From: Psychrobacter sp. DM4
GTDB taxonomy: Bacteria; Pseudomonadota; Gammaproteobacteria; Pseudomonadales; Moraxellaceae
Direction of reading: 5' to 3'
Length of the DNA: 32,000 bases
Assembly (NCBI RefSeq): GCF_051307035.1
Contig: NZ_CP195536.1
Span: forward strand, 1,170,001-1,202,000
Part shown: one piece after another, positions 1 to 23,161 of the stretch
Numbering within the stretch: position 1 is the first letter of the stretch
Layout: each line of letters starts with the position of its first letter
Notes under the pieces: model-generated
The model's input: the letters and a program-made list of their open reading frames with translations, nothing else
Databases searched by the model: none
What the model was told of the DNA's origin: nothing
Made by a program: the position numbers and the translations under genes

Positions 1-1284
1 ATTCCTTGGTCATTAATGGTATTCCAGCAGCGTAACGGTCGTATTGATCGCTATGGTCAAACGCAGCAACCTCTGATTCGTTATTTACTGACCGATAGCA
101 GTAACCAAAAGATTAAGGGCGATAATCGCATCCTAGAAGTGCTTATCGAAAAAGATGCTCAGGCTGGCAAGAACATTGGTGACCCCAGTGAATTTAACAA
201 AGAAGAGGGCGAGGCGATTACCGCGGAGCTGATAGAGCGTGATAATAACATCGATGATTTGGATGATCTGCTAGGAGACTTTTTTAGTGGTACAGATGAC
301 GGTGATAGCGAGCCTGTAGATATTGTTGAGGCATTCACCCCAACCAACGAGAGCTTGGCAGTTGATGAGATGCTGGGTATCCGCCCACAGATATTCGATA
401 ACGATATGGACTATGCTACGGCCGCAGTTAATTGGCTACAAGAAGATGCGAGTGTTGCGCTACAAGTTAGTATTGATGGCGATATGCTGCGCTTAACTGC
501 GCCTAGTGACCTCAAGCAGCGCCGACGCTTTTTACCAAAAGAGGTGTGGCCGCAAGACGATCGCTTTGTATTAACTAGCGACAGTCAAAAAATCAGTGAT
601 GAGCTCAAGCGTTGCCGAGAAGAAGACACCCCTTGGCCTAATATTCACTATCTGTGGCCCCTTCATCCTGTTGTGCAGTGGCTATATGATCGCTCGCTCA
701 ATGCGTTTGGTCGTCATACGGCTCCTGTCATCCGTATTCCGCAGCAGCTGGAGCAAGATGAGCATTGGTATGTGCTACATGGCGGTTTCCCCAATCGCCG
801 CGGGCAGGTACATCTACAAAGCTGGTGTGCCGTGCATATCAAAGACAATCAAGTTACTGACAGCTGCGATTTGGAAGAGTTCTTACAGCGGATAAACCTA
901 AATAAGCTGGTTAACCCAGGTCGCAGTAGTGATACCAGTGCGTTATCTAAGCTGTTACCTATAGCTATAAACCACGCCAAGCAACAGCTGGAGCAAGAAC
1001 GTATACAGTATGAGCAGACCAGTAATGCTGTATTAGAGAAACAAATAGACGCGCTAAATACGCTAAAGAGCAAGCACATTAGCCAGTTGGAGCTTGACCT
1101 AGAAGGCTTGAGCGGTAGCAAGCAAGATACAAAACGCTATAGCCGCGAAAGTGAAATTAATCGTATTTTTGATGATTACTTTGAATGGTTAGAAAATACG
1201 CAGCTCATTGAAAAACAACCTTACATACAAGTCGCCGCAGTCTTTACTGGCATGCCCCATCAGGATACAGGAGCCGTGCTATGA
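1..1284 (+). CDS. drmD: SNF2/SF2-family helicase, C-terminal part (5' end lies outside the window); DrmD-like member of a class 1 DISARM-like locus
   Basis: Frame 1 is open from nt 1 ([20 protein letters not shown]...), so the Met at 16 in the ORF track is internal. QxxGRxxRxGQ is helicase motif VI. The stop overlaps the next start (ATGA at 1281-1284). The DrmD label rests on context: it is adjacent to a giant N6-MTase, with a DUF1998 helicase downstream. Confidence 0.7.
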
Positions 1285-4200
1285 ACTTAACCGGAATCAG
1301 TAATGAGAACGAATTTTATAGCCAACACTATATGGCAGAGATATTTGCCGGTGACAGTGATGTAAAAGGGCTTCAAGACAGCTGGCAACAGCAAGAAACT
1401 AAAGCTCGCGAAGCGGCACTGACTGAGCAAGATAAGAAAAATGCTTGGCGCACGCCTTGGAATCAAATGAGCAGAAATGCTCGAGAGACGTTGTTGCTAC
1501 TTGATGAATATGGTCACAAGCAAACCGCTATAGACAGACTAACCTTGGGTCGTGAGGTATTGCGTAGCTTGCTGTCTACCTTTGAGTTGCCTTATGCACC
1601 TCGTGCACAATATGTTGAGCATACCCAAAGTTATGTACCGCTACTGGGCGAGATAAAAAACAGCCAAGGCGAGCCGCTGTTATGGATTTTAGAAGCTCAG
1701 GCACTAGGCAGTGATTATGATGCTGATAGCGATCCACTGGCATTGCCTCTGCATTCGGCACAGATGAAAGGCTTAGAGGGTTATCCATCATTCGAGCAAC
1801 AGTCAGAGCAAGAGTCAGAAGACAACTGGCAAAAACTGCTATCTAGTACGATATTTAGCCAAACCCTGCCTCCACGCTGGGTCATTCTCGCCAGCCCATA
1901 TCAGTGGCTATTAATTGACCGCAGTAAATATGCTCAAAACCGTTTAATCCGCTTTGACTGGAAAGAGGTATTCAGTCGCCGTGAGTTAGATACTCTAAAA
2001 GCAGCCACTGTGCTGCTGCATAAAGAAGCTCTGTTAGATGCCAAGGGTCAAACGTTACTAGATACGCTTGATGAAAATGCGCACAAACATGCTTATGGCG
2101 TATCAGAGGATTTAAAATATGCACTGCGTGAGTGTATTGAGCTATTAGGTAATGAAGCATCACAGCAGCTGATTGCCAAAGCCAGTCAGAATAAAAAAGG
2201 GATTTTTAGTGGTAAAAACCAACTAGACCCTGATGAGCTGTCTCGCCAATGCTTGCGTTATATGTATCGATTGCTGTTTTTGTTCTATATCGAGGCGCGT
2301 CCTGAGCTTGGCTATGCGCCAACTGGTAGTGAGGTATATCTAAAAGGGTATTCATTAGAGCACTTGCGCGAGCTTGAGCTGATGCCGCTGACCAATGAGC
2401 AAGAGCGTCAAGGTCGATACTTTAACGATTCGCTGAATATTCTGTTTGCATTGGTATCAGAGGGTACGCCTGAGCAACAGCATGGTGATATGTTTGGCGC
2501 AGCGCAGCAGACCGGCCGTGATGCCTTTACCATGACCGCGCTCAAGTCGCACTTATTCGATCCCAAAAAGACTGCGTTACTAAGTAAGGTTGTCTTCCCG
2601 AACCATCTATTACAGCGTGTGATTCAGCTGATGTCGTTGAGCCGTCCGGACAAAAGCAACAAGCGTCGCCGTGGTCGTATCTCATACGCACAGCTGGGCA
2701 TTAACCAATTGGGTGCGGTCTATGAGGCATTATTGAGCTATCGCGGCTTCTTCGCTAACGAAGACTTGTATGAGGTAAAAAAGGCGGGCGATAAATATAA
2801 TATCCTAGATACTGGCTATTTTGTTAATGCTGAGGCATTAGAGCAATATAAAGACGATGAGAAGGTCTATGAAAAAGAGGCCGCTGACCAATACGGCAAT
2901 AAACAGCTGAAAAAATACGCTAAGGGTACGTTTATCTACCGTATGGCCGGCCGTGACCGTGAGAAGTCTGCGTCTTACTACACCCCAGAGGTGTTGACCA
3001 AAAGCTTGGTGAAATATGCGCTAAAAGAGCTGTACGCTCAGCAGCTTGAACCTCTGGCCAATGACCGTGAACGGGCTGAAAAGCTATTGCAGTTTACGGT
3101 GTGTGAGCCAGCGATGGGTAGCGCGGCGTTCTTAAACGAGGCAATCAACCAACTGGCTGAGAAGTATCTAGAGCTGATGCAAAGCGCAAACGATGAGCGT
3201 ATTGCCCAGCAAGACTATGTTAAAGAGCTACAAAAGGTCAAAATGTATCTGGCCGACAACAACGTCTATGGTATTGACTTAAACCCAGTGGCGGTAGAGC
3301 TGGCAGAAGTGTCATTGTGGCTAAACGCCTTGTCGGCAGACCGATTCGTGCCTTGGTTTGGGATGCAGCTGTATAACGGTAACTCCTTGATTGGGGCGCG
3401 CCGTGAAGTGTATAAGCTGACTCAGACCGGTGCCAAAAAGAACGACTCTAAGCAGTGGCTACAAAACGCCCCAGAAGCGGTTGCGATGAGCCAGCCGCGA
3501 GCGGAAGATGAGATTTGGCACTTCTTACTGCCTGCAGAGGGCATGGCCAATTATAAAGATAGGGAAGTAAAGAGCTTACATCCTAAGCAGTTTGATACCA
3601 TCAAAGACTGGCGCAAAGACTTCTTAAAGCCGTTCAATGGTGATGAGCAGCGCCGTCTAATGGCCCTTAGTGAGAAGGTTGAGGAGCTGTGGCAGCTGCA
3701 CACCAGAGAGCAGCACAATATCCGTCAAAAGACCACGGACCCTTACGATATCTACGGCATGCCCAGTACAGGCCGTACCCAGACCTCACTGGATTATAAA
3801 GATCAGGTATTGACCCAAGAGCTATATGCCGAGGGTCTAAGCAACAGTAGCGCCTTTGGTCGTCTCAAGCTGGCGATGGACTATTGGTGTGCGTTATGGT
3901 TTTGGCCGATTGAGCAAGCGGATGAGCTGCCAAGCCGTGATGAGTGGTTGTTTGAGTTAGAAAGCTTACTGTTGGGCGATACCATCGGGGTGCAGACAGG
4001 CAATCAGCAAGACTTGTTTGCAGAGACGCAGAACTTAGAGGAGGGCAAGCGCTTTGTCAGTAAATACGGCGTGGTCGATACCAAGCTGCTTAAGCAAGCC
4101 TTCCCGCGTTTGGGATTGGTTGAAGAGCTAGCTGATGAGCATAAGTTCTTCCACTGGACACTACAGTTTGCGGATGTGTTTGCGAAAAATGATGGTTTTG

Positions 4201-6260
4201 ATTTGATGCTGGGTAACCCGCCTTGGTTGAAAATTACATGGAACTCTGGTGATGTATTAGGCGATTTTGAACCACTTCTAATTTTGAGAAAGTTTACCGC
4301 TCCGAAAATGGCGAAGTTACGAGATGCAATATTTAATAGAAATCCTGATCTTACTAAGAGCTGGTTGAAAGATTATGAACAAAGTGATGGTGTATTAAGT
4401 TACTTAGGTGATGTAAGTAACTTTCCACTATTGCAAGGCGTTCAAACAAATCTCTATAAATGTTTTTTACCTCAAGCATGGAGCTATACTAATATTTGTG
4501 GAATAAGTGGGTTTCTGCACCCTGAGGGAGTATATGATGATCCTAATGGGGGTATCTTAAGAGAAGCAATATACAGGAGGCTTAAGGCGCACTTTCAATT
4601 TCAGAATCAACACATGTTATTTCCAATAGGTCATAGGAATAAATATAGTACTAATGTCTATGGAACATATAAAAAGAGTCCCTGGTTTAGTAATGTCGCA
4701 AATTTATTCTCGCCTAAAACAATAGACTTATGTTTTGATCATGATGGAAGAGGTATTGTTGGTGGAATCAAAGATGAAGAAACAAATAACTGGGACGAGT
4801 CAGGTCATGCTGACAGAATTATAGATATTACGGAAAAAGAGTTAGAGCTTTTTTCTAAACTCTATGATGAGCCAGGAACTAAAGCTTCAGCTGCACGTTT
4901 ACCTGCTATTCATGCTAAACAATTCCTAACTGTTTTAGAAAAATTCGCATCCCAACCTAAGCAACTTAGTGATATACAAGCAGAGTACTTTTCTACGCAA
5001 TTTTGGAATGAATCTGCTGCCCAGAGTGATGATACTATAAAGCGTGAAACGAAGTTTCCTAGTGATAACAATGAACTTGTTTTAGCTGGACCACACCTGT
5101 TTACAGGAAATCCTTTATATAAAACCCCAAGAGTAATATGCACTGAAAAAGCACACTATGACTGTCTTGATTTGATAACTCTACAGGATGGCTATCTACC
5201 TAGAACTAACTACGTACCTGCATGCGGTGTAGACTTATATAAGAGTAAGATACCTACCGTTAGTTGGGTTGATTACGGCTTCCAAAAGGAAAGAAAGGTT
5301 ACGGATTATTATCGTTTAGCTTTAAGAGCTATGATCAGTATAGGTGCAGAAAAGGGATTGGTATCAGCTTTAGCTCCTAAGGGTGTAGCGCATACAAATG
5401 GAGTAAGAACTTATGCTTTCAAGTCTAGCGAATTATTAGTAGCAATTTCAGGAGTATGCTTTTCAATAGTATATGATTTTATGATGAAGTTATCTGGTAG
5501 AACTAACTTGCATCAAAGCATTGAGGATTATGCTTTACCAGAAAAAGTTGTCAATAACCCTATGTTTGAAATTAGGGTTTTAGGATTATCATGTATTACT
5601 ACGAGCTACAATGAGCTTTGGGATGATTGCTGGGACTCAGATTTCAATGAACAAAGTTGGAGTATTGGCTCTGATAGCAATCACCCCGGTGCAAACGTCT
5701 TACCACAAGACTTCTTTAAGGAATTAACTCCTGAATGGCAACGTGATTGTGCTTTGCGTAGTGATTACTCCCGCCGGCAAGCACTGGTAGAGATTGATGT
5801 GCTGGTTGCACAAGCGCTTGGATTAACACTAGAAGAGCTGCTGACCATTTACCGCGTGCAGTTCCCAGTGATGCGTCAATATGAGGCGGACACTTGGTAT
5901 GACCAAAATGGCCGTATTGTGTTTACACCAAGCAAAGGGTTAGTCGGTGTTGGCTTACCACGTACCGCTCGTAAGTCAGACTTAAATGACGGCATTAGCT
6001 ACGCCATTACTCAATATGCCGACACTGATGATGAGGGCGGTAGCAAATCAATCAAACGCCAAGAGAGCGGTATTGCTTTAGGTTGGAATGACATTCAAGA
6101 TCTAAAAGCAGGCGACACCGTAAGCAAGACCTATATGGATGATACCCAACCTGGCGGCCCAGTAGAGCGCACCATTGTGTACGAAGCGCCCTTCTTTAAG
6201 CCTGATCGTGAAGAAGACTATGCGATTGCATGGACGTTCTTTGAAGAAAAGGGGGAGTAA
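1281..6260 (+). CDS. drmMI: Very large (1659 aa) N6-adenine DNA methyltransferase, Eco57I/type IIG-like; DrmMI-like
   Basis: SAM-binding motif I-like [15 protein letters not shown] (about 3100-3140). Catalytic motif IV NPPW at 4215-4226 ([10 protein letters not shown]). Its start is coupled to the upstream helicase (ATGA) and its stop to the next ORF (TAATG at 6258-6262). Size and neighbours match the class 1 DISARM methylase. Confidence 0.85.
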
Positions 6261-6937
6261 TGGACATTAGAAAAATACCACATATTCTCGAACAACTGGC
6301 TGACGTAAATGAGCAGTTAGTATCTTTATCGGATGATATTTGGCTGGGCATCGATCATCGTGATAATGAGTCAATTATCGAGGGCTCTCAGTTTATTCAA
6401 GATTATAATTTGGCAACCAGTCAACTGAGTAAGGCTGCTGCTGCTGTTGAACTACAACTTCTAACGTATTTTAAAAACGATATAGAAAGCGTACAGCCAG
6501 TCATTGAGCATGGCAATGATGACACGATAAAAAACCAGCGTATGATAAAAGAGTTGGATCGTAGCAAGGCTTACTCGCTAAACGATAACTTCACTTATAA
6601 GCGTCCCTATGGTTTTGTGCTAAAAGGTATCGCTTATACCAATATCACTACTTGGAAAGCAGTTTATCTAAAAGTTTTACATGCTCTTTATAAAGAAAGT
6701 CCTGCAGCATTTTCAGCATTGGTGACTGATAAACGCTTCATTAGCAAACGAGGAAATCCTTTATTTACAGAAGATCAAAAAAAGTTACGGGTAGCTCAGT
6801 CTTTGCCTGCTGGTTTTTATACCGAAGTGAATATGTCTGCCAATAGTATTAAGGATACGCTTTTACAAGTTCTTGCTTATTTTTCAATTGATGAAAAAGA
6901 GATGAAGATATATTTGCGCGAAGATCGAGATGCTTAG
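6260..6937 (+). CDS. Hypothetical protein (225 aa), translationally coupled to the methyltransferase
   Basis: The ATG overlaps the MTase TAA (TAATG). A purine-rich SD (AAGGGGGAG) lies just upstream, inside the MTase 3' end. I recognise no motif. AT-rich coding sequence. Confidence 0.6.
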   Translation: MDIRKIPHILEQLADVNEQLVSLSDDIWLGIDHRDNESIIEGSQFIQDYNLATSQLSKAAAAVELQLLTYFKNDIESVQPVIEHGNDDTIKNQRMIKELDRSKAYSLNDNFTYKRPYGFVLKGIAYTNITTWKAVYLKVLHALYKESPAAFSALVTDKRFISKRGNPLFTEDQKKLRVAQSLPAGFYTEVNMSANSIKDTLLQVLAYFSIDEKEMKIYLREDRDA

Positions 6938-6942
6938 CTGTT

Positions 6943-6975
6943 AGAAGAACAAGGCTGATTATTAGTTATTCTTCT
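6943..6975 (+). terminator. Weak AT-rich hairpin after the 225-aa ORF
   Basis: AGAAGAACAA (6943-6952) pairs with TTATTCTTCT (6966-6975), 9 of 10 bp, with a 13-nt loop and only TT after it. Weak as an intrinsic terminator. Confidence 0.3.
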
Positions 6976-7007
6976 TTAAGCTTAGCTATTTTTTTAAGCT
7001 TAACTAT
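6976..7007. repeat. Imperfect tandem direct repeat TTAAGCTTAGCTAT / TTAAGCTTAACTAT
   Basis: 14-mers at 6976-6989 and 6994-7007 differ at one position. Each contains the palindrome AAGCTT. They lie in the AT-rich spacer upstream of the GTPase gene. Confidence 0.4.
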
Positions 7008-7080
7008 GAAAATAATTATTTTATCAACTGAAAATTTTTAGAAAAAGAAATATCGAAAATAAATCTTACAACTTCTAAGC

Positions 7081-7114
7081 AGTAGTATTTCTTATAAATA
7101 TAAGAAGTAGTATG
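7081..7114 (+). promoter_or_regulatory. Candidate operator/promoter for the GTPase operon
   Basis: Perfect inverted repeat TTCTTATA-AA-TATAAGAA (7089-7106) is flanked by direct GTAGTAT copies (7082-7088 and 7107-7113). It contains -10-like TATAAA/TATAAG hexamers about 55 nt upstream of the ATG at 7160. Confidence 0.3.
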
Positions 7115-7159
7115 TACTAAGTGCTTATAAATTTTAACTATTTGAGGATCGAACTAAAT

Positions 7160-9595
7160 ATGTACGAATTGGATACTAATTTATTACGTGATGAAGCACA
7201 ACGTTTATTAAAACAAGAGATTAAAGTATTAGAGCAAATTCAAAGTACACCGAACCTATTAGTTCAAACAAACCAGGAAAACACTCAAACCCTTGATTCT
7301 GAATCTATTGTAGAAGCTATTAAGCGTTTAGAGGATGAAAGTTATAAGCTTAATAACCTTGAATTAGTCATAGCTGTAGTGGGAACAATGAAGGCAGGCA
7401 AGTCAACTACTATCAATGCTATTGTTGGCATGGAGGTCTTACCGAATCGTAATAGACCAATGACTGCTTTACCCACATTGATTCGTCATACTCGAGGAGT
7501 TACTGAGCCGCGTTTAATTTTTCAGAATACAGCACCTGTTAACACCCTAGTCAATGAGTTGAGTGAAAAATTAAAAAATGCGCCTAACAGTCTATTAAAG
7601 GAGCTTAACGAAAATGATGACATGCAAGAGCTGCTAGAACAGGTTAGAAGAAAACAATATTTTTCGGAAAACCACGAAGGTAGCGATGCAATTTTTAACT
7701 TTCTTAAAAGCTTGAATGACTTAGTTCGCTTATGTACAGAGCTTGAAGTAGATTTTCCATTTTCTGCTTATAGCCGTATTGAGAGTTTGCCTGTTATTGA
7801 GGTTGAGTTTATTCATTTAAGCCAGATGGGTCATATGCAAGGCCGTTTAACTTTACTTGATACTCCTGGTCCTAATGAAGCTGGTCAGAGTCATCTGCGA
7901 CCTATGCTTCGTGATCAACTCAAAAAAGCGTCTGCCATTTTGGCTGTGCTAGATTACACCCAGCTAAAGTCTGATGCTGACAATGAAATGCGTGAAAACT
8001 TAGAAGAAGTTGCAAGTGTAAGTGGCGAACGCTTATACGCACTAGTTAATAGATTTGATCAAAAAGATAGAAACAGTGATAGCTCGAATGAAGTGCGTAA
8101 ATACGTGTCGAGTAATTTAATGAAAGGGCTGATTCCTACTAATCGTGTATACCCCGTATCAGCAAGGTACGGTTATTTGGCAAGTCAAGCTAAGAATGAG
8201 CTTGCTATAAATGAATGTCTACCTAGTCACGACACTCATGAGTGGGTTACTGACTTTGCTAAAATAGCAATAGGTGGCTTCCGCTGGAAAGACCAAATTA
8301 ATGATATTGAGACAGTTACTGCTGCAGCTAATTATTTATGGGAAGAGTCGCAGTTCAACGAACCGCTAGAACATGTGATTCGTCAAGCTTACAGTAAGGC
8401 AGCTATTCTTACTATTGATTCCACAGCATCAAAAATGGTTGAGATTGCAGAGAATGCAAAAAATTTCTTAGGTACTCGTAAACAAGCTTTTAAGAAGAGT
8501 GTTGATGAGCTTCAACTTAGAATTGTCTCGCTGCAAGATAATATAGATTTTATTCAGAATAAGGAAAAGGCTGTTAGTAAGGATACTAATTCTGCTTTAA
8601 ATGACGTACGAAAAGGTATTCAAATCGCAGGTCAAGTAGCTCAAAAAGAAACACTGTCTATTCTTGAGACGTACTTTAAAGAAGGTAAGCGTATTGAGCG
8701 GACGAAGCAAAAAGAAAAAAAGAAAGGGCGTAGTACAAAACCTAAAAAAAAAGGTACTGAAAGTCCGATGCAAGAACTTGTGAAGCGAATTAGCTTAGGT
8801 GGCTATTCTAGTACTTCAGATAGAGAAGAAGACGCTCAAGACTTCGAGTTTAATGACAAACCACTTAAGTTCAAAGACCAAAATGAAGCTGAAGAGCTAC
8901 TCAACCGTATTGAAGCATCCATTGAGGCAGCAAGTAAAGATGCTGAAGAGACTTTACGTAAGGAGGTCCAGCAACAAATACAATCTTTCAGTGAGAGCTT
9001 TCAAGGTTATGTTGATGAAACTAAAAAAGTAATTGACAATATCAAAAAGGATATGGGTGACTTTGACTTAATTATCCGTTTACCAGATGTAAAAGACTTA
9101 CAGCTAGGCTTTGCTATCGATGAAGTATTAGATGATGCAACACAGAAAAGAAAAGAAAAAGAGACTCGCTCGCGTAGAAAGAGTGGAACATGGGGGAAAA
9201 TTTGTAGTTGGTTCAATACAAATGATTGGGGATGGGAAGACTATTCAGTCGACGTAGACGTATATTATGTTGATATAAAATCTATCAAGGCGCAAGTCAA
9301 AAAAGGAATTGGAATAGCTTTTAGCGACTTGGAGAAGACTCTTGGTTCAACAGTTGAAGCACAGTTAAATGAACAAGCTGATAGCTTTTTTACTGCTCTG
9401 ACAGCAAAGGTTGAGCATATTCGTGGCGACTTAATAGCTAGTATGGATGATAGGAAAAAAAGTCAAGAAGATCAGAGGCTACTACTAAATAGTTTAGAAG
9501 AATTAGAGAAACCTATTCCTCATTTATTGGGCGATAGCGAGGCTATCTTAAAAGATGTACGTGGTCTATTGCTAGGCGTAGGGATAGTAAAATGA
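7160..9595 (+). CDS. Bacterial dynamin-like GTPase (about 811 aa; YjdA/CrfC/LeoA-type large GTPase)
   Basis: G1 P-loop GTMKAGKST (7382-7408), G3 DTPG (7859-7870) and G4-like NRFDQKD. A long helical, charged C-terminal half contains a Lys-rich tract (KQKEKKKGRSTKPKKKG). Preferred start is ATG 7160 with GAGGA upstream; the ORF track's GTG at 7121 is an alternative. Confidence 0.8.
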   Translation: MYELDTNLLRDEAQRLLKQEIKVLEQIQSTPNLLVQTNQENTQTLDSESIVEAIKRLEDESYKLNNLELVIAVVGTMKAGKSTTINAIVGMEVLPNRNRPMTALPTLIRHTRGVTEPRLIFQNTAPVNTLVNELSEKLKNAPNSLLKELNENDDMQELLEQVRRKQYFSENHEGSDAIFNFLKSLNDLVRLCTELEVDFPFSAYSRIESLPVIEVEFIHLSQMGHMQGRLTLLDTPGPNEAGQSHLRPMLRDQLKKASAILAVLDYTQLKSDADNEMRENLEEVASVSGERLYALVNRFDQKDRNSDSSNEVRKYVSSNLMKGLIPTNRVYPVSARYGYLASQAKNELAINECLPSHDTHEWVTDFAKIAIGGFRWKDQINDIETVTAAANYLWEESQFNEPLEHVIRQAYSKAAILTIDSTASKMVEIAENAKNFLGTRKQAFKKSVDELQLRIVSLQDNIDFIQNKEKAVSKDTNSALNDVRKGIQIAGQVAQKETLSILETYFKEGKRIERTKQKEKKKGRSTKPKKKGTESPMQELVKRISLGGYSSTSDREEDAQDFEFNDKPLKFKDQNEAEELLNRIEASIEAASKDAEETLRKEVQQQIQSFSESFQGYVDETKKVIDNIKKDMGDFDLIIRLPDVKDLQLGFAIDEVLDDATQKRKEKETRSRRKSGTWGKICSWFNTNDWGWEDYSVDVDVYYVDIKSIKAQVKKGIGIAFSDLEKTLGSTVEAQLNEQADSFFTALTAKVEHIRGDLIASMDDRKKSQEDQRLLLNSLEELEKPIPHLLGDSEAILKDVRGLLLGVGIVK

Positions 9596-10506
9596 GCCAG
9601 AACTTACAACCGATAACTCCTGATTGTGTTTTACTAAAAACGCTAACTTCAATACCAGAAAAATTTATAGTAGATTTTGCAAACAGTATTGATGTTACTC
9701 GCGATCACTCAGAGGTACAGCGTGAGAGAAACAAGTTTTTTGCTCGCTGTTTTGATGGTTTTACAGGTAAAGATGTAAGACGTCAAAATGAAATTAATAC
9801 TAACTTAACTAATGCTGTTGAATGTTCATTGACATGGCTAACCGAGCTTACCCAAGACTTAGCTCATACTAATAATGCTATAACACGCGTCAATGAACGA
9901 GTTACTAAGTTAACTAGTCAGGTAACATACCTTGCACAGTATTCAGAAAATACTCGTCATAGATTAGATGAGTTGTCGCAAAATCTCAACGATCGCATGC
10001 TATGTTTAGATGAAGAGGTTATGCGAATTGGTTTTAATCAAAAAGTAATACTGCATCTTGACCAAGTTTTTAATAAATGGAGGGCTGGGCGTTTAGTAAG
10101 TTATTCGCCTGCTGGTCGTTGCTACGCAGCTATAGAAGAGTTACGGTGGGGTGCATTTGGTGATTTCTGCCTCAGTCATACAGGCTCTGAGAGAGATAGC
10201 TTTATGCAGCAAGCAGTAGATCGTGCAACTGCACAGCTAGCAACAGATGCAGAAATTAGCACTAGTACTAGATTGAGTTTTTATAGTGGTTGGTTGCAAT
10301 TGCCTCATAATACTAATCAAGATGACGACTGGCATCAGGCACTAAAGTATTTGGCGAATGGCTTTACTACGGATAAAGCGCCTTTAATTACAACTATTAC
10401 GCAAAAACTACCAGAAAGGCTAGGAGAGGTTCCTTTATTAGCAAATGCATCACGAATAGCTGAGACAATTGTTGATGAAGTATTTGCGGAGGAAAGTTAT
10501 GTCTGA
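9592..10506 (+). CDS. Hypothetical coiled-coil protein (304 aa), partner of the dynamin-like GTPase (possibly YjcZ/RdcB-like)
   Basis: The start overlaps the GTPase stop (ATGA at 9592-9595). The stop overlaps the patatin start (ATGTCTGA at 10499-10506). The central segment looks like heptad-repeat coiled coil (LTELTQDLAHTNNAITRVNERVTKLTSQV...). The YjcZ analogy rests only on the E. coli yjdA-yjcZ gene-pair architecture, not on sequence I could verify. Confidence 0.6.
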   Translation: MSQNLQPITPDCVLLKTLTSIPEKFIVDFANSIDVTRDHSEVQRERNKFFARCFDGFTGKDVRRQNEINTNLTNAVECSLTWLTELTQDLAHTNNAITRVNERVTKLTSQVTYLAQYSENTRHRLDELSQNLNDRMLCLDEEVMRIGFNQKVILHLDQVFNKWRAGRLVSYSPAGRCYAAIEELRWGAFGDFCLSHTGSERDSFMQQAVDRATAQLATDAEISTSTRLSFYSGWLQLPHNTNQDDDWHQALKYLANGFTTDKAPLITTITQKLPERLGEVPLLANASRIAETIVDEVFAEESYV

Positions 10507-11527
10507 ACAAATGAAGGTAGGTTTAGTACTCTCTGGTGGCGGTGCTAAAGGAGCTTATCAAGCTGGTGTCCTGCGAGCTTTACAAGAATTAGGTACTCAG
10601 ATTGATATGGTGTCAGGCGCTAGTATTGGGGCGCTTAATGGTGGGATACTAGCCAGCGCACCAACACTTATTGAAGGTATTGAGAGAATTGAAAAACTTT
10701 GGAGTATTTTGGCTGAAACCTCTCCTATTCAGTTAAATTCAATGAGTTATATAAAGCTTGCAGTATCTGCAGGAGCTACATTAGTACCTAGCGCCCGTTA
10801 TCTGATGTTAGCCCTCGGTGTATATGACGAGGCGATTCTATCAGATACGCCCTTAACAGAGTTAATGAATGAGTATCTTGACACCAATGAGCTCGCTAAG
10901 GGTCTTCCTCTTTATGTGTCGGTTTATAGAAGTTTAGGCGCAACAATAGATATTGGCCGCTGCTTTTTAGCTGCAACTGAATTAAAAGATACTCCAGACT
11001 CTGAGTTTTTACATGTTCAGTCATTGCCTAAAGATGAGCAGCGTAATGCTTTATTAGCATCAGCAGCACTACCTAAGCTTTTTAAAGCACGAAAGGTGTT
11101 AGGTCATAAGTATACTGATGGGGGTCAAGGTGGCTGGTCAAAAGCACAAGGTAATACACCAATACAGCCTCTGATAGATGCAGGTTGTAATCTTATAATA
11201 GTAACTCACCTTAGCAACGGTTCTTTTTGGAGCCGTAACGACTTTCCTGGGGTAACAATTCTTGAAATTCGTCCTCAGGCAACTATGGCTAGAGCTACGG
11301 GGCTAATGGGAGGTGCTAAAGATTTGCTAGGCTTTGATACAAGCAAAATCCCATCGTGGGTAGAGCAAGGATACAATGATACTTTACATTGCATAGGCCG
11401 AGTAAAGAAAGTAACACAGACTAGGGAGGCACTCAAAGCATCTAAATCTACTTTTGAGGAAAGTGAAAAATATGGAGCAGAAGTTGATATAGCTTTAGAT
11501 GAGATCTTATCAAGAATGAGAGAGTGA
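10499..11527 (+). CDS. Patatin-like phospholipase (342 aa)
   Basis: Oxyanion-hole motif GGGAKG (10535-10552), nucleophile elbow G-A-S-I-G (10616-10630, Ser codon at 10622-10624) and catalytic Asp in DGG (11117-11125). Preferred start is ATG 10499, preceded by GGAGGA. The ORF-track start at 10469 lies inside the upstream gene. Confidence 0.85.
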   Translation: MSEQMKVGLVLSGGGAKGAYQAGVLRALQELGTQIDMVSGASIGALNGGILASAPTLIEGIERIEKLWSILAETSPIQLNSMSYIKLAVSAGATLVPSARYLMLALGVYDEAILSDTPLTELMNEYLDTNELAKGLPLYVSVYRSLGATIDIGRCFLAATELKDTPDSEFLHVQSLPKDEQRNALLASAALPKLFKARKVLGHKYTDGGQGGWSKAQGNTPIQPLIDAGCNLIIVTHLSNGSFWSRNDFPGVTILEIRPQATMARATGLMGGAKDLLGFDTSKIPSWVEQGYNDTLHCIGRVKKVTQTREALKASKSTFEESEKYGAEVDIALDEILSRMRE

Positions 11528-11631
11528 AAATAGTTCTAATGTACTGTTTATAACAGAGTTATGGTTGAACTAAAAGAATGTAGAGATTTAACCCAAGGTC
11601 AAATTAAAATAGCGAATTCGAATATAAAAAA

Positions 11632-11670
11632 CACCTAACTATCTTATTGAAAAATAGTTAGGTGAATTTT
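11632..11670 (+). terminator. Rho-independent terminator-like hairpin closing the GTPase/patatin operon
   Basis: Perfect 11-bp stem: CACCTAACTAT (11632-11642) with ATAGTTAGGTG (11654-11664), 11-nt loop, followed by AATTTT and preceded by an A-run, so it may act in both directions. Confidence 0.6.
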
Positions 11671-11760
11671 AAATGCTTATTTTATACGATCACTGATATC
11701 TAATTAAAATGCTATCTATTCGCCACTTACCTAATTAAAAGCCAGTAAAAAGGACTATCA

Positions 11761-14700
11761 ATGCTTCCTTCGTCAATTGCTCGTGAAATAAAATCTGAGC
11801 TAGAGAACTTTTTATCCAGTAGTTTTCCAATGACTACTGCTGGTTTTCAAGGGCACGGAGAGCAGGGATTGATGGAGCAGTTTTTACGAGATCCTAATCG
11901 GCCAAACAACCTGCTGAAAGGCCCTTGGCTTGAGGTGAAGCTGCCATTTCGAACAGCCAGCCACTCAGCTGAGTCGCCATTAACTGAGGTCAAGCTTGGC
12001 TTTGCCCCTTATATGCACCAGCAGCGTGCTTTTGAACGATTAGCTACCTTGCAGCCGCAGTCGACACTGGTGGCAACCGGTACTGGATCTGGTAAGACAG
12101 AGTGCTTTTTATACCCTATTTTAGATTATTGTTTGCAAGAACGCCGCAAGGGCATCAAGGCTATTATTATCTACCCTATGAACGCATTGGCCACCGACCA
12201 GGCGCGCCGTTTTGCCAAAGAAGTATCGAGTCTGACTCCAAAGCTTACAGTTGGCCTGTTTACTGGTGATGGTGGCTCTGACTCTAGAGTGATGAGCCCT
12301 GACCAAGTCATTACCAATCAGGATACCTTGCGTGATAATCCGCCAGACATCTTATTAACCAACTATAAAATGTTGGACTTCTTATTAATGCGTCCCAAGG
12401 ACCAAAGGCTGTGGAAGCATAACCTCAAGACTCAGGATTTGCTGCGCTACCTCGTAGTGGATGAGCTGCACACTTTTGATGGGGCACAAGGGACAGACCT
12501 TGCCTGCCTGATTAGACGGCTGCGTGACAAGCTGCATCTACGAGATAACTTGGCCTGTGTAGGTACTTCAGCGACTATTGGTGGGGAAAGTGCACGTAAG
12601 CAGCTAGCTGAATATGCCAGTGAGGTTTTTGCTACTAGCTTTGGCTTAGACAGTATCATCCTTGAAGACAGGATTACGGTTGAAGAGTATGTTGAGCAGT
12701 TTCGCGAAAACTCTTTACTTAATGCAGAGCAAAAACCAGAGATTATTGTCGATTGGCCAAAAGCACTTGAAAAAGAACTGCTTCCAGGCGCACTGACGCA
12801 AGGGGTCTATTTACGTCGCCAAGCCAATTTATGGTTCAGTGTCGATCTTGCTTTGGATGTTGATGACCATGATTCCCATGAGTACAAAGCGGCCTGCGTT
12901 GCTTTGGGTGAGTATTTGCATCAGCACACGGCCTTTTTGAGCCTATTACGAGCATCAAACCAGATAGCAGACTTGCGTCAACTGGCTGAGCAGTGGCAAC
13001 AAGACTTTAATCTAAGCAGCACTGATTATACGCTGGCTTTACTAGACAGCTTAACTGCATTGGTTTCTACAGCACGTATCTGGGCGGACGATTCACAGCA
13101 AAAAGTCCGTCCATTTTTACAAGTAAGGGTACAGCTATGGTTGCGTGAGCTAAGGCGTATGTTGGCCAGTGTTAGCCCTGAGCCAAGACTGGTACACTCA
13201 GATGACTTGATTGACTCTACATCACCACTGCATTTACCTATCTTACATTGCCGTGAATGTCATTCTGCCGCTTGGGGTGCCATGTTACCTCAGGGAGAGC
13301 ATACGATTAACCCAGAATTACAACGATTTTATGCGGGCTGGTTCTCCCAATCACCAGACTCAGTCCTACTTTATCCCATTGCTGATAATGAAGAAACCCT
13401 AGATCAGCAGCAAGCTCGAGAAGTGTTCAAATTATGTACCGAATGCTGCGAATTGAATACGGTGCAACATAATCAATGCCAAAACTGTGAACAGCCCTTG
13501 CTCAAAGTATGGATCCCTAATCTGGTCAAACAAGTTGAGCGCGCTGGTCAAACCAAAAATATCCGCACGGATGACTGCCCGCGTTGTGCCGCTAGTGGCA
13601 GCTTGATGATATTGGGTTCACGAGCAGCAAGTTTGGCCAGTGTGGCTATCAGTCAAATCTATGGCTCTCACTGCAATGATGACCATAAATTAATTGCCTT
13701 CTCTGATTCAGTACAGGATGCAGCGCATCGTGCTGGTTTCTTTGGTGCACGCACTTATATGCAGACGGTTCGTCAGGCACTGGCTCATGTGGCTCGCAAT
13801 GAAGGTGATAATATGGCGTTGTCACGGTTTATTGATGAAGTGCCAAAATACTGGCAACGAGAGTTCAATAATGATGCAGGCTTTATTGGCACCTTTATAG
13901 CCCCCAATATGCAGTGGCTGTCTGGTTATCAGGATTTAATAGAGTCTAAAGGTGCAGTCGTTAGTAAGTCTCTACTTGAATTGGTTGCTCAGAGGCTTCG
14001 ATGGGAGGCACTAACTGAGTTTGGGCTGCGTTCAAGAATAGGACGCACATTAGAGCGCTCCTCGGTGGCAGTGATTCAACCTGATCCAGATGCGTTAGAA
14101 GATTGTATAAATCAGATATTGCGTCACTGGCAGGAGGAGTTAGAGCAGTTTCGTTATTTAAAGGTAGAGCAAGTTCGAACTTTCTTATTGGGTTTTCTAA
14201 ATCGATTGCGTCAACAAGGTGCCTTTTATGATCCAATCTTAGACAGCTATGTAAGAGAGGGTGGCACAACCTATCTGTTGTCTCGTATTCCTTGGTTACC
14301 AGGCTTTGGTTTTTCATCAAAACCGCCTGCAGCACTAACCTTTACACCCGTTAATAACAATTTCCAAAACCTAGTAGGTAGAGGTTCTCAGTGGTATCAA
14401 GATTGGTTCAATAAGACAATAGCTTTCGACAATATATTAGCCTCTGCTGAGTATGAACAAGCGGCACGTATTTTAATCAATACGCTTAATCATCATGACT
14501 GGTTGATAGAGAAAGACACAATCAAAGGGGAGGGTGCTTGGTTATTAAATACCGAATATTGGCAAGTAGTAACCTCGGTTGCAACGATTGCTTGTAATTG
14601 CTGTGGTAGCCGTCAAACAATCTCACTACAGCATCAAGCTAATTGGAATGGCATGCCTTGCCTACAAAGTGACTGTAAAGGCTCTTATGTACCCGTGAAT

Positions 14701-17700
14701 AGCGGTCAGATAGGGCAGTTGGCTTATCGGACTTCACCCAAGCGTTTGGTAACCAGTGAACATACAGGACTGCTAGAAGGCAAGGATCGTTTGGCTATTG
14801 AGCAATCCTTTATTTATGGAGAAAACGCTTGGGACGTTAACTTGCTATCGGCAACACCCACCTTAGAGATGGGTATTGATATTGGTGATTTATCCGCTGT
14901 ATTGCTATGCTCTGTGCCCCCTGCGCAAGCCAACTACTTACAGCGCATTGGTCGTGCTGGTCGTAGTAATGGCAATGCGTTAGCACTCACTATAGCCAAT
15001 GGTAGTAATCATGATAACTACTTTTATGAAGACCCATTAGAGATGATTCAAGGGGATGTTGCTACCCCTGGTATCTTCTTAAATGCAATGGCGGTATTGG
15101 AACGTCAACTCATTGCCTATTGTTTTGATCGGTGGGTCGCAACAGGAGTCAGTGAAGATGCGATCGCTCCAACGATGGGCTCGGTGTTAAACAGTTTGCA
15201 AGGCAAAGGAAAAAATACAAGCAATGGATTGGCCATCCAGAGATTTCCTAATAATCTGCTTAGTTTTATCGACGAGCATCAAGAGCAGATTTATAGTAGA
15301 TTTATTCAGTTGTTTAAAGAGCTGGACGAAGAGGGGCAAGCACACTTAAAGGATTTCATTGGCTTACAATACTCAGGCAATGGGCAGGGAAGAAAATCGC
15401 TATCTGGAGAACAAGCAGAGCATACGCCGCTAAGCTGGCGTATCGTTAATAGGCTAAAAGAGTTATTAGACAGCCGTGAGAGCCATAGAAAGCGCGCTGC
15501 AGATCTGAAGAAGAACTTTGAAGTGCTATCAAAGCAGCCGGCAGACGATGCACGAGATCAGACGCTTGGGGACTTAAAACGAGAACGTGATGCATTGCTA
15601 TCATTAATGGGCAGTATTAATAAACAGCCAACGCTCAGCTTCTTTACAGATGAAGGGTTGTTACCGAACTATGCGTTCCCTGAAGAGGGTGTTACCTTAA
15701 ACTCAGTCATTGTGCGTAAAGTCGACCAAAAAGACAGGACTGGCTCTGATAAGTCTTCTGAGAAAAACAGTTATGAGCAAGTCTCTTTAAAATTCCAGCG
15801 CTCAGCACAAGCTGCGCTCAATGAGTTGGTCCCCGAAAATGTCTTCTATGTATCTGAACATAAGATTAGTATTGAGCAGATCGATCTGCGGTTGTCTGAG
15901 CCTAGTGAATGGCGGATGTGTCCTAGTTGCCACTACACTGAAGATATAACTTTATCGGGTGATAAGCACAGTGCATGTCCGCGTTGTGGTGATCCTTATT
16001 GGGCGGATATCCAGCAAAAGCACAATCTGCTTAAGTTACGCCAAGTTTATGCACGTGCTAACTCTCGCTATGACCGTATTAGTGATGACAGTGATCAGAG
16101 AGAGCCTAAGTTCTTTCAGCGTCAGTTATTGATTGATATTGATCCCATAAACTGTCGCAATGCCATGCGTATTGATAACCCTGAGCTACCTTTTGGTTTT
16201 GAATACGTCAGCACAGCTACTTTTAGGGAAGTAAACTTTGGCGAGCAGTTTGGAGAGTTTAATAGCTTCTCTGTCGCTGGTAAGAGCAGCTCAAGAAAAG
16301 GTTTTCAGATATGTAAGTATTGTGGCATGGTGCGTCGTAAAAAGCTTAAGAAAGGGCAGTTTGCTCATGCTTTAGATTGTAGGCTGGCACGTCCTGGTGC
16401 TATTGAGTCTGAAAATGACTGGTTTGAAAGCCTTTATTTATATCGTGAGCTTAAGTCAGAAGCCATCCGCATTTTATTACCTTTAGCTGACGTAGCTGAA
16501 TCAGAACAGGCAAGATTGTCTTTCATTGCTGCTATTAATTTGGGGTTAAAAGAGTATTTCCATGGCGCGGTACAGCATCTTGAAGTTACTGAAATGCGAG
16601 AATCGAGTTTATCTGGTAGCAAACAGTACTTGGTGATTTATGATCGTATCCCTGGCGGTACAGGGTACTTAAAGCAGTTAATGGTATCTCCCACAGCTTT
16701 ATTTACAATGTTGGAAAAAGCGCTGAACCATCTAAGTACTTGTAAGTGTGTGAATGATGAGAATAAAGATGGCTGTTATAGCTGTATTTTGGCTTATCGC
16801 AATAGTCATCATAGACAGGATATCTCACGACAGGCTGCGGTTAAGCTACTGACACAGATTCTGCATAACAAAGATAAGTTAGTGCCTATTGATGCTTTAA
16901 ATGAGGTACCGACCAATCATATCTTAGAGAGTGCTTTGGAAGAGAGGTTTGTTCAGGCGCTGGGCAAGCAGTTTAAAGTGATAAAAGAGCGTATCAATAA
17001 TAAGCCTGGCTATCTTATTGATACGGGATCAAGTATGTGGCAACTAGAGCCACAGGTTGAGTTTGGTAAAGATGATGGGGTGTTAGAAACCCGTGCAGAC
17101 TTCGTGTTGCGTCCGCTCAAAGAAGCAGAACGTACTCAAGATAACGAGCTGATTATTTATACCGATGGTTATGAATATCACAGAGATATTGTGACAGACG
17201 ACTTGCGGAAAAGACTCAGCTTATTACGCTCTGGTCGAAAAGTCTGGGTACTTACTTGGGATGATTTGGACAATGAAAGTACGACCAAAACAGTCAGCCA
17301 GCCACGTCTACTATTAGATTGTACAAAGGAGTCTAGCCCAGGTTGTCGATTATGGAATACGATTGCTCCGAGGCACTCATGGAGAAACTTAAAAGAAATC
17401 CGTGGCTTATTAGAGCAAGGAAATTTTGAATGGCTGAAAGCATGGCTCACAAACTCGAAACAAACATGGCAAGAGCTGACCGAGTCTGCATTATGCTTGT
17501 CTTTCCTACAGCTGGTACCACGTCGACCACAGTTGGATGAGTTTGTTGCGAATCAGATAGAAAACAATACCAATTGGTATGAGGCAGTTGTCGACAGCTT
17601 ACCGAGTGATCCTAGTAACTGGGGCGTTGTTGCAGATAGAGATAACCATTCGAATGCTTGGCATCTGCTCAGTTATATTGAAAAGGATCATATAGAGTCA

Positions 17701-18243
17701 TTAAAGACCGACCAGCCAATGTTACACATTTTTATGAGTATCAATGATGCTGTATTCAATAGTCAGCATTCTAAAGAAGTAAAAGAAACGTGGCGACGAA
17801 TTTGGCAGGCTTATAACGTCTTACAGTTTGCGCCAAGATTTCATCCAGTCACAGAATCAGGTCTGCAAGTTGGCTTATTTACGGATTTACTGGGAATGGG
17901 TACGGAGCATCAAGAATCTATCGGAAGCACTACCGCAAGTTATGATGTAAATAGAAGTGCTTTAGATAAAGAGTGGGTTGATATTCGTGAGCTCAGCGAA
18001 TTAACGAATGATGAGATTATGTCTTTACAAAACCTTATAACAGTAGCGCCTGAAGTGGGAATTGACTTAACGAATGAAGAGGGTGCCACAATAGGTACCG
18101 CTGAATTAGCATGGTTTGATCGTAATATTGCTGTATTTATTGAACCAGTTGATGAGTTGCCAGAGTTAAAAAATTGGTTACTTATTTCATTAGAGTCTGA
18201 CAACTGGTTAGAGCAGTTAGAAACGGCGCTAGGCGCTAATTAA
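11761..18243 (+). CDS. 2160-aa DExH-box SF2 helicase fused to DUF1998/MrfA-type Zn-ribbon region and a C-terminal DUF559/Vsr-like fold; DrmA+DrmB-like (alternatively DruE-like)
   Basis: Motif I GSGKT (12085-12099), motif II DELH (12460-12471), motif III TSAT and motif [11 protein letters not shown]. RecA2-type motifs appear only after a roughly 700-aa insertion carrying CxxC pairs. The DUF1998-like part shows CPSCHY...[21 protein letters not shown] and CKC...DGCYSC. AAGGA SD lies 8 nt upstream of the ATG. Confidence 0.85.
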
Positions 18244-20747: not shown

Positions 20748-21959
20748 ATGGCGTTTGTTTGCTTAAAAGACAATCAGACTATTTATAGTTTTCATTACGC
20801 CTTAAAGGACTGGATTGCTTTGAAAGAGGATAAGCACTCTTCTTTCAAAATGTCTTGTTGCAACACGCCCGCCATCCTTAAAACAAGTAAGCTTGGCACA
20901 CAGTTCTTTTCTCATAAAGCCAAGCCTACCGATACAGATTGCTCAAGCGGTGGTGAAACGGCTGAGCACATACATATCAAGTACCTGGTCAGTAAAACTC
21001 TGTTCGAATGTGGTTGGAATGTGCAAGTCGAAAAACGTGGTGTATCAAGCAAGGGCGAGGAATGGATAGCGGATATCTATGCCACTAAAGGCAAGGCTAA
21101 GATCGCCATTGAGGTGCAGTGGAGCCCGCAAGCATTTATTGAAACCAAACGTCGTCAACAGGTTTATAAAGACTCAGGTGTTAGAGGCTTATGGCTGCTT
21201 AGAAGTGGCTCAATCAAAGATAGAAATGCCATTACCGGTGATTACTTGTATAAAACCAAGGATGTGCCAGTATTTTCGGTCTACAAAAACAAAAAAGAGC
21301 CTGGTAGCTCCTACAAGGTTTTCAATGTCAATCAGGAAGATACCGAGGAGGGTTTGATTTATGAGCGTTTTGAGCCGATTGCGTTGGATTTAGGGGATTT
21401 CATCTCTATGATGATGTCATCACAGATAAAGTTTTATGCAAAATACAGCCGTAGCACAGAGTTGTTTTTAAAAATCATTAAGCAAAAATGTTGGGCTTGT
21501 AAGAGAAGCATGAATAGCGTGGCCAAGGTTGTTTATAGAAACACCAATTATGGTGTGCCTTACGAGGATCGTCGTTATAGCGGTCATATAACAGATTGTG
21601 ACAGTGACACCATTCAGGTTATCAATAACAACCTTGCTCAGACTTATGGGTTTGCGCCTCTAAAAAGCATGTATAGCAAAACAATGGGCGGCAGCTTCGT
21701 GTCTAACTCATGCCCGCATTGTGGTGTTTTGATGGGTAACTTCTTTACTGAGCGAGCATTCATTGAGGCCCGCTACCATAACCGCGTCATACAAACAGAT
21801 AGTATCAATATTTCTAGAACACCAGTCATCGTAAATGGCAAAGAAATGGAAGTCGACTTTGAGCGCGGTGAGTGGGTACTACTTAACACCTTGCCTAAAC
21901 AAACCCCGATATCATTCAGGCTACCTAAGAATTTTGTAAAACTGACAAAGCCCTGTTAA
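20748..21959 (+). CDS. CoiA-like nuclease-fold protein (403 aa) with C-terminal Zn-ribbon
   Basis: The N-terminal pattern FKMSCCNTPAILKTSKLGTQFFSHKAK resembles the CoiA CxxC...HFAH motif. It is followed by ETAEHIHIKYLV...WIADIYATKGKAKIAIEVQWSPQ...RRQQVY...GVRGLWLL, which is the PD-(D/E)XK-like D...E-x-Q core of the CoiA family. The C-terminal half carries CWAC...CPHC. Confidence 0.65.
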   Translation: MAFVCLKDNQTIYSFHYALKDWIALKEDKHSSFKMSCCNTPAILKTSKLGTQFFSHKAKPTDTDCSSGGETAEHIHIKYLVSKTLFECGWNVQVEKRGVSSKGEEWIADIYATKGKAKIAIEVQWSPQAFIETKRRQQVYKDSGVRGLWLLRSGSIKDRNAITGDYLYKTKDVPVFSVYKNKKEPGSSYKVFNVNQEDTEEGLIYERFEPIALDLGDFISMMMSSQIKFYAKYSRSTELFLKIIKQKCWACKRSMNSVAKVVYRNTNYGVPYEDRRYSGHITDCDSDTIQVINNNLAQTYGFAPLKSMYSKTMGGSFVSNSCPHCGVLMGNFFTERAFIEARYHNRVIQTDSINISRTPVIVNGKEMEVDFERGEWVLLNTLPKQTPISFRLPKNFVKLTKPC

Positions 21960-23094: not shown

Positions 23095-23161
23095 CCTTTT
23101 TATAAGAGCCTACTTTTAAGATGACAGTTTGATAGATTCTATAACCTATAGAGTAGCTTAT

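Follow-up and report, generated by a model that had tools for sequence, protein, structure and literature searches.

Psychrobacter sp. DM4 carries, in the 32,000-nucleotide stretch analysed here and called the window (NCBI RefSeq assembly GCF_051307035.1, contig NZ_CP195536.1, positions 1,170,001 to 1,202,000), a three-gene cassette at 6937-11745 of the plus strand that codes for a dynamin-like GTPase, a protein of the YjcZ/RdcB family and a patatin-like phospholipase. Judged from its sequences, its genomic contexts and the analogy with better known proteins, this segment is probably a self-contained and horizontally mobile cassette for anti-phage defence of the abortive-infection type, working as modelled below. 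The GTPase gene spans 7160-9595 (811 amino acids from the ATG at 7160; the mechanically called open reading frame starts at a GTG at 7121), the partner gene 9592-10506 (304 amino acids) and the patatin gene 10499-11527 (342 amino acids from the ATG at 10499). The three genes are translationally coupled, the first two by ATGA at 9592-9595 and the last two by ATGTCTGA at 10499-10506, just as a preliminary description of this DNA had read them. Exact protein records were identified for the patatin (WP_435980442.1) and for the partner (WP_435980441.1), the latter annotated as 'RdcB family'.

The three genes behave as a single unit: they are translationally coupled, they co-evolve, their catalytic motifs are intact, and the arrangement is kept across phyla, in hundreds of only remotely related bacteria. 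When one genome per species was scanned with an alignment made from the patatin only, 80 loci were retrieved; the patatin follows a YjcZ gene in the same order and strand in 68 of them, and 64 of these 68 also contain the GTPase. The trio loci belong to Gamma-, Beta- and Alphaproteobacteria, Cyanobacteria, Acidobacteriota, Spirochaetales, Bacteroidales and Neomarinimicrobiota. The 4-nucleotide overlap between the GTPase and partner genes recurs in 36 of the 64 complete loci, and the matrices of pairwise identity for the three proteins are correlated (r = 0.85-0.90). The stronger statement that the patatin always occurs with the GTPase and the partner was rejected, since the other 12 of the 80 loci, mostly from Synergistaceae, are related stand-alone patatins that align only to about residue 300.

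The surroundings of the trio are not syntenic: among 860 flanking open reading frames only 8 clusters were present in at least 3 loci. Most copies are chromosomal. The YjcZ-like marker gene of the trio was identified in 44 enterobacterial plasmid records, and the one marker-bearing record that was opened, plasmid pAW1.7_2, contains all three genes between the insertion sequences (IS) IS5 and IS30. The full plasmid trio is present in only 5 of 5426 complete Escherichia coli genomes, always plasmid-borne, and a sixth genome holds a 236-nucleotide fragment. A phage origin was rejected, with no tblastn match in 50,697 phage records and only 2 loci in 2.9 million IMG/VR contigs. Within the genus Psychrobacter, the trio patatins of Psychrobacter okhotskensis (L044) and DM4 are about 42% identical and lie in unrelated contexts, the former with a WYL regulator and a HEPN-like gene and the latter embedded in a host operon, which points to independent acquisitions in one genus.

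In the window the cassette is exchangeable cargo, located in a slot between the methylase and helicase genes of its host operon where known defence systems are found in other cases. The operon recurs in Psychrobacter relatives with a UvrD-like protein of at least 90% identity, and there a pair of proteins of 283 and 475 amino acids replaces the trio; this pair is PDC-M09 A/B (381 and 649 bits for the homologues in locus L089). The DNA match to near-identical Psychrobacter operons (94-97% identity) stops at 6936 and restarts at 11746, and the cassette is therefore placed at 6937-11745, close to the borders proposed earlier (6938-11760). A metagenome scan with the C-terminus of the methylase returned 80 related operons, in 37 of which the end of the methylase and the start of the helicase are both present. 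The slot is empty in 8 of these 37 (a gap of -46 to 192 bp), where the methylase abuts the helicase, and the earlier suggestion of an insertion into the operon is thus borne out by both the homology breaks and the empty sites. In the remaining 29 the slot is filled with 1.8-9.5 kb, comprising at least 15 different cassettes. The cargo that was identified is made up of established or candidate defence systems, namely Zorya II, Eleos (in three-gene and two-gene forms), JukAB, Septu, PDC-M09, PDC-S27, HEC-05, HEC-07 and a MkoA-like cassette. Beyond the window the trio itself occupies the slot in at least 10 loci, L082/L086, L087, L055, L056, L060, L116, L119, L123, L124 and L155, and some of the slot trios adjoin Zorya II or JukAB.

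The site where the methylase meets the DruE-like helicase (window 6260-11760; loci L086-L165 and L170-L175) is a precisely bounded cargo hotspot in its own right. Its commonest cargo is Zorya II, present in at least 12 loci; Payne et al. reported this system as embedded only once (bioRxiv 10.1101/2024.01.29.577857). The same authors used guilt-by-embedding to find and validate new systems, and their paper makes no mention of the trio (bioRxiv 10.1101/2024.01.29.577857). Among the other cassettes in the slot, the one at L143:11989-14231 comprises two septin/AIG1-like GTPases (382 and 366 amino acids) and has no PADLOC match, and the one at L113:3498-9362, also identified in L128, has dynamin-domain proteins of 579 and 636 amino acids around a 738-residue protein and is only faintly Leo-like. 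The gaps of L096, L117, L147, L150 and L154 also hold cassettes with no system assigned. As nearly every identifiable insert in the slot is a defence system, these remaining cassettes are candidate new systems.

Both ends of the cassette are AT-rich spacers. The left one (6937-7159, plus strand) has 23% G+C and contains a candidate promoter/operator and the ribosome-binding site GAGGA. The palindromic candidate operator announced for this region was identified at 7083-7112, with the core TTCTTATA-AA-TATAAGAA and inverted-repeat arms of 14 nucleotides with 86% complementarity. It is also present in the relative L082, where the entire spacer is 93% identical, so that its conservation is uninformative on selection. 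A consensus scan identified no sigma-70-like sites in the upstream spacer, and matches overall were no commoner than in shuffled sequence. The right spacer (11528-11745, plus strand) has 27% G+C and holds a hairpin at 11632-11664 with 11 perfect pairs (CACCTAACTAT/ATAGTTAGGTG). Its T-run scores on the minus strand, the plus-strand tail being AATTTTAAAT. Because the T-run is better on the non-coding strand, the hairpin is a plausible terminator of the cassette's own rather than a textbook one; the perfect stem claimed for 11632-11670 stands, and the terminator itself is weaker than had been stated. In base composition the trio is also distinct from its host, with a whole-gene G+C of 38.9% (0.26-0.29 at third codon positions, GC3), while the methylase gene has 44.4% (GC3 0.43) and the helicase gene 44.0% (GC3 0.40). 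The earlier spot counts of 18/60 at 8521-8580 and 35/60 at 12481-12540 are exact.

The first protein matches Pfam Dynamin_N (1.6e-20) and, over its full length, the NCBIfam CrfC model NF007368 (positions 9-737 of 742) with 571 bits, and fails to reach the equivalog cut-off of 1146 bits. Because this end-to-end match scores half the cut-off, the GTPase is, by sequence, a paralogue of E. coli RdcA (also named YjdA or CrfC) and not its equivalog. Its identity to E. coli RdcA is 49% over residues 49-461, 57% over the core and 15% over residues 571-804. The motifs GTMKAGKST, DTPG and NRFD are present, with the P-loop Lys81 encoded by AAG at 7400-7402, and the residues of G1, switch I (Thr102), G3 and G4 are at least 95% conserved in 58 GTPases from related loci. 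K81 and T102 of the window GTPase are the counterparts of the positions altered in the E. coli RdcA alleles K82A and T103D. A lysine-rich, low-complexity stretch (KRIERTKQKEKKKGRSTKPKKKG; window 8672-8839, residues about 505-560) lies between the two halves of the protein and did not align with E. coli RdcA. Both proteins have a DWG motif, near residue 690 of the window GTPase, in which G691 is at least 95% conserved.

A neighbour-joining tree of the GTPase cores, built without support values, places E. coli RdcA within the trio clade, adjoining the trios of Serratia and Budvicia. From this nested position the E. coli rdcAB pair looks like a derivative that lost the lipase, which is offered as a lead. 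In two loci (L069:4930-6525 and L046:5321-6589) the trio GTPase gene is directly preceded by another, shorter gene with a dynamin domain. Each extra gene groups closest with its own neighbour in the tree, so that they are tandem duplications.

The second protein had been described as a coiled-coil partner. The open reading frame of 304 amino acids is as described; the family is now corrected to YjcZ/RdcB. The match to Pfam PF13990 (YjcZ) has an E-value of 7.1e-65 and covers profile positions 1-272 of 272, and by this measure the partner is a full-length, bona fide member of the family, at 24% identity to E. coli RdcB. Its AlphaFold2 model (predicted local distance difference test score, pLDDT, 77.9) shows one helix of about 105 residues and, after it, a C-terminal domain that is compact and helical. 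The structure and family search that had been proposed for this protein returned the full-length YjcZ/RdcB match and no relative in the PDB, by fold or by sequence.

The third protein matches Pfam Patatin (PF01734, 4.6e-28). By its Gly-rich oxyanion loop, its GxSxG and DG[GA] motifs and its predicted fold it is a patatin-like phospholipase. The sequences GGGAKG, GASIG and DGG are present and the Ser-Asp dyad is intact, formed by Ser42 of GASIG (codon AGT at 10622-10624) and Asp207. Residues G13-G15, S42 and D207-G209 are invariant in 20 orthologues and at least 95% conserved in 80. The catalytic motifs reported earlier for GTPase and patatin, with their Lys and Ser codons, are in this way confirmed and conserved in relatives. 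The AlphaFold2 model (pLDDT 77.3) ends in a C-terminal helix of about 60 residues (281-341). The best Foldseek matches were PlpD (1.7e-10), the VipD-Rab5 complex (PDB 4kyi; 5.9e-7) and CapE/CapV (about 1e-6). The PADLOC models for CBASS-type lipases match residues 4-68 only, with 21-28 bits, and the NCBIfam CBASS_lipase model scores 26 bits for a cut-off of 200.

As a system the trio has no counterpart among the models and papers searched, and by sequence its GTPase and partner belong to a named and studied pair, RdcA/RdcB. The antiphage models of PADLOC v2 and NCBIfam (June 2026) include none that covers the GTPase or the partner; the PADLOC check that had been advised returned, for the whole cassette, only the weak N-terminal CBASS lipase matches of the patatin. 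Full-text searches on YjcZ/RdcB/YjdA/PF13990 and on dynamin plus patatin in phage defence returned no paper that describes the trio as a defence system or that tests it against phages. The sole mention of its genes that was found is made in passing, for a genomic island of E. coli O118 (PMC13182975). The earlier statement that the trio is not a named system is accordingly kept for the three genes together and dropped for two of its parts.

Five known systems or groups of systems are comparable to the trio. The first is RdcA/RdcB (YjdA/YjcZ), whose two genes are homologous to the first two of the trio and have the same order and the same 4-nucleotide overlap. The pair of E. coli K-12 has no patatin, and rdcB is followed by proP. 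The window operon has a patatin gene, and the scan of the window, covering most open reading frames of at least 150 amino acids, returned no match to the GGDEF family of diguanylate cyclases such as DgcE. It is a core, chromosomal pair controlled by the flagellar regulon, whereas the trio is rare, mobile cargo, and the effector-binding C-terminal half of the trio GTPase has diverged (15% identity). The second is Eleos (LeoA/LeoBC or LeoA/B/C), likewise a defence built on dynamin-like GTPases and found in the same slot in L107, L125 and others. Membership in Eleos was rejected, as neither the GTPase nor the partner has a match (E <= 0.001) to the PADLOC models for LeoA, LeoB or LeoBC. The Eleos cassettes of the slot score 308-808 bits with these models, their GTPase cores are 19-26% identical to that of the window (outgroup level), and they contain neither a YjcZ protein nor a lipase, while the trio has both.

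The other three are the patatin effectors of CBASS, VipD and embedded systems. The CBASS lipases CapV and CapE have the fold and the Ser-Asp dyad of the trio patatin at 14-15% identity, and their membrane-destroying role in abortive infection is the parallel proposed for it. Membership in CBASS was rejected, the cassette having no cyclase and only weak, N-terminal matches to the lipase models; activation of the trio lipase would be by a protein partner and not by a cyclic nucleotide. VipD of Legionella is a patatin that is activated by Rab5 binding. It was solved bound to this GTPase (PDB 4kyi) and is among the closest folds to the trio patatin. However, VipD is a secreted effector that targets eukaryotes, its GTPase is a small Ras-like host protein and the homology is confined to the patatin core. 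Finally, embedded systems, of which PrrC in a type I restriction-modification (RM) locus is the classic case, are, like the trio, co-oriented with their host, nested in it and alternating with other systems at the site. The host of the trio differs from Hma, BREX, canonical DISARM and type I RM, and the trio is not among the HEC/PDC models of PADLOC v2.

Regulators of the WYL-WCX type (the BrxR/CapW kind) were identified at 16 of the 68 trio loci and are immediately upstream, on the same strand as the trio, in 8 of them: L005:4234-5271, L006:5454-6533, L014:5707-6639, L044:5530-6447, L050:5520-6440, L069:3999-4901, L071:5439-6497 and L079:882-1817. These eight loci, which belong to Beta- and Gammaproteobacteria, suggest a four-gene form of the cassette.

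The proposed function rests on an analogy with E. coli, where GTP-bound RdcA is inactive and moves to the membrane upon GTP hydrolysis or depletion, the C-terminal domain of RdcA binds the diguanylate cyclase DgcE and thereby activates it, RdcB contacts both halves of RdcA and is required for the active higher-order complex, and (p)ppGpp (guanosine penta- and tetraphosphate) modulates the switch (PMC13463826, PMC6510439). The GTPase of the cassette would be a similar nucleotide-state switch, held off while GTP-bound. GTP hydrolysis, a fall of GTP or another cue linked to infection would send it to the inner membrane, where it may form higher-order assemblies with the RdcB-like partner; the input of the switch could be nucleotide pools, a membrane perturbation or a phage protein. 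The divergent C-terminal half of the GTPase would then recruit or activate the patatin, whose long C-terminal helix may be the contact; for a patatin in complex with a GTPase, the VipD-Rab5 entry (PDB 4kyi) is a structural precedent. The patatin would hydrolyse the phospholipids of the membrane and the infected cell would yield no phage. In many relatives the upstream WYL regulator probably restrains expression. With a conserved GTPase half, a diverged effector half and, in the operon, a lipase whose helix protrudes, the cassette is most simply read as the same switch given another output. A more specific version, held here only tentatively, being rather doubtful as a whole, is an immunity that senses nucleotide pools: the GTPase would be a 'trigger enzyme' that reads a phage-caused fall of GTP or rise of (p)ppGpp, assembles with RdcB at the membrane and unleashes the patatin, which would kill the cell. 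The RdcA/RdcB-DgcE biofilm circuit of E. coli would in that case derive from an immune module whose lipase was lost and whose output became cyclic di-GMP (c-di-GMP) signalling.

Several observations weigh against the defensive reading. The only studied members of the family, E. coli RdcA and RdcB, act in c-di-GMP physiology, as activators of DgcE, and not in immunity (PMC13463826, PMC6510439). The cassette of the window has no adjacent WYL regulator. Ordinary housekeeping genes border many trio loci, at island edges, and in Yersinia a chromosomal trio adjoins arsRBC while in Klebsiella the trio is among efflux and fatty-acid genes; with such non-defence surroundings the association with defence is strong and not universal. 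The census of 277 genes located within 3 genes of a trio consists of aggregate counts per family with no matched control: 14 WYL, 3 PDC-S24 and 3 SoFic, together with PDC-S04, JukA, Cas3-like helicases, MADS, type I RM, AbiEii-like ATPases and integrases. A variant lacking the GTPase (L083:3199-6483 and L084:69-3353) has in its place, before YjcZ and the patatin, a protein of 449 amino acids which has only its first 26 residues in common with the GTPase and no GTPase domain; the control of such a form is not accounted for by the switch model. The variant too is nested in the host operon, immediately behind the methylase gene, and PDC-M09 and a GmrSD-type gene come next. The preliminary description had named a mainly housekeeping context as the outcome that would speak against defence. 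The survey found non-syntenic flanks, WYL, integrase and defence neighbours and a slot that otherwise holds defence systems, on account of which the trio is not assigned to such a context, with the Yersinia and Klebsiella copies as the part of the survey that does not conform.

The main rival to phage defence, to which a modest chance is given, is a physiological stress module, in which the GTPase would read GTP or (p)ppGpp at starvation and the lipase would remodel or recycle membrane phospholipids, as in stationary phase or in cold adaptation. It agrees with the only experimental data on the family, which describe a GTP/(p)ppGpp-sensing regulator of stationary phase, with the non-defence contexts of the Yersinia and Klebsiella trios, and with the near-absence of the trio from phage genomes, which fits any host function. 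Such a module would not be expected to be so rare and patchy (the E. coli copies being confined to plasmids of 5 in 5426 genomes), to have IS-flanked copies and non-syntenic flanks, to be exchanged at precise borders with PDC-M09 in a slot otherwise holding defence systems, or to be so frequently paired with WYL regulators. Another reading is a protective, non-suicidal repair of membranes, where the dynamin-like protein would seal or remodel the lesions made by the entry or lysis proteins of phages and the lipase would trim damaged lipids locally. Protection of membranes against phages by proteins of the DynA type is a known idea from Bacillus subtilis, the GTPase belongs to the dynamin family and the genomic context fits any anti-phage role; it cannot separate repair from abortive infection. 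However, RdcA is reported as having no known membrane-binding paddle and as a signalling switch, not a remodeller, and the closest folds to the patatin are the cell-killing effectors CapV, CapE, ExoU and VipD; repair is for these reasons considered improbable, below the stress module.

Two further explanations are both regarded as very improbable. The trio could be a non-autonomous effector arm of the SNF2-methylase-helicase-UvrD system in which it is embedded, as might be expected from its recurrence at the slot in hosts that are only 35-48% identical (L055, L056, L060, L116, L123, L124 and L155) and from its orientation, always that of the host genes. That system was identified in only 3 of the 80 patatin-fetched loci, though, and the trio stands alone between IS elements on a plasmid. 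The cassette has its own spacers and hairpin, and the slot may be empty or hold self-sufficient systems such as Zorya II and Septu. The trio could instead be a selfish module for addiction or competition, with a lipase toxin restrained by the other two proteins, the cassette stabilizing the mobile elements and islands in which it resides. Its occurrence on plasmids and between IS elements and the potent toxicity of patatins elsewhere (ExoU, VipD) would suit such a role, which is hard to reconcile with the chromosomal location of most copies, with the lack of an antitoxin-like small gene or a secretion-system context at the loci, and with an antitoxin as unusually elaborate as a GTPase of 811 amino acids with fully conserved catalytic motifs. 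Abortive-infection defence by the cassette is thus preferred to these four explanations.

The host operon of the window comprises five genes on the plus strand besides the trio. The first (16-1284) is the C-terminal part of a SNF2 helicase cut by the window edge, with weak DrmD matches in PADLOC; the full gene in the relative L082 codes for 965 amino acids with Pfam SNF2 and helicase domains. The second (1281-6260) is the Eco57I/MmeI-type methyltransferase of 1659 amino acids, with Pfam Eco57I and with PADLOC matches to a type IIG restriction endonuclease-methyltransferase (939 bits) and DrmMI (187 bits). The third (6260-6937), which precedes the cargo slot, codes for a protein of 225 amino acids with no Pfam, PADLOC or NCBIfam match. 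After the cassette are the DEAD/DEAH helicase of 2160 amino acids (11761-18243; Pfam DEAD, Helicase_C and MZB (DUF1998); PADLOC DruE 315 bits, DrmA 62 bits) and a UvrD-family helicase of 728 amino acids (18254-20440; Pfam UvrD-helicase and UvrD_C, with GajB-like and NERD+UvrD matches in PADLOC).

This operon had been called DISARM-like, a name that fits only loosely. DISARM is defined by the helicase DrmA, DrmB (DUF1998) and DrmC (PLD), to which class 1 adds DrmMI and DrmD. The SNF2 protein scores 30 bits with DrmD, the matches to DrmA and DrmMI are those given above, DUF1998/MZB is fused to the helicase, there is no phospholipase D (PLD) gene and a UvrD helicase follows; the best match of the helicase is DruE and that of the methylase is type IIG. 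With a defining feature lacking, membership in canonical DISARM is doubtful. The 225-residue protein deserves a separate comment. The start codon of its gene abuts the methylase stop, and its G+C (37%) and GC3 (0.31) are below those of the host genes. It is kept with the slot when the cargo is the trio, PDC-M09 (L170, L171, L173 and L174) or Zorya II (L094, with 235 amino acids), and is absent in Psychrobacter sp. Ps2 (L172).

Further genes of the island type come after the host operon in the window. They code for a CoiA-like nuclease (20748-21959), for a PP2C phosphatase (22219-23094), for a regulator of the WYL-WCX type (23129-24250; 25% identity to that of L071), for a PD-(D/E)XK protein (24318-25343) with weak PDC-S26 matches, for a small helix-turn-helix protein (26641-26853) and for a protein of 770 amino acids (27661-29973). 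The last has no Pfam, PADLOC or PDB match, and a 41%-identical homologue is located near the trio of Psychrobacter okhotskensis (L044:3-1568). The window contains no tRNA genes. In other trio loci a protein of 218-287 amino acids comes directly after the patatin (L005:10452-11315, L044:11089-11766, L048:11104-11763 and L054:11109-11765); it has no Pfam match and contains an Rx4H motif (LRNQLVHGG) reminiscent of HEPN RNases.

The trio is one more candidate in a crowded field. The methylase-helicase junction is a compact cargo site, and the cassettes found there with no system assigned would be ready-made defence candidates if the trio protects. In that case, the trio would represent a widespread defence architecture with a dynamin-like sensor and a lipase effector, present in many phyla and on clinical enterobacterial plasmids. 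It would also offer a biochemical way into the control of an enzyme by a bacterial dynamin, to which the mutant designs made in E. coli would transfer. RdcA/RdcB of E. coli, known to date as a c-di-GMP regulator only, would then be a branch without lipase in a family that usually acts through a phospholipase.

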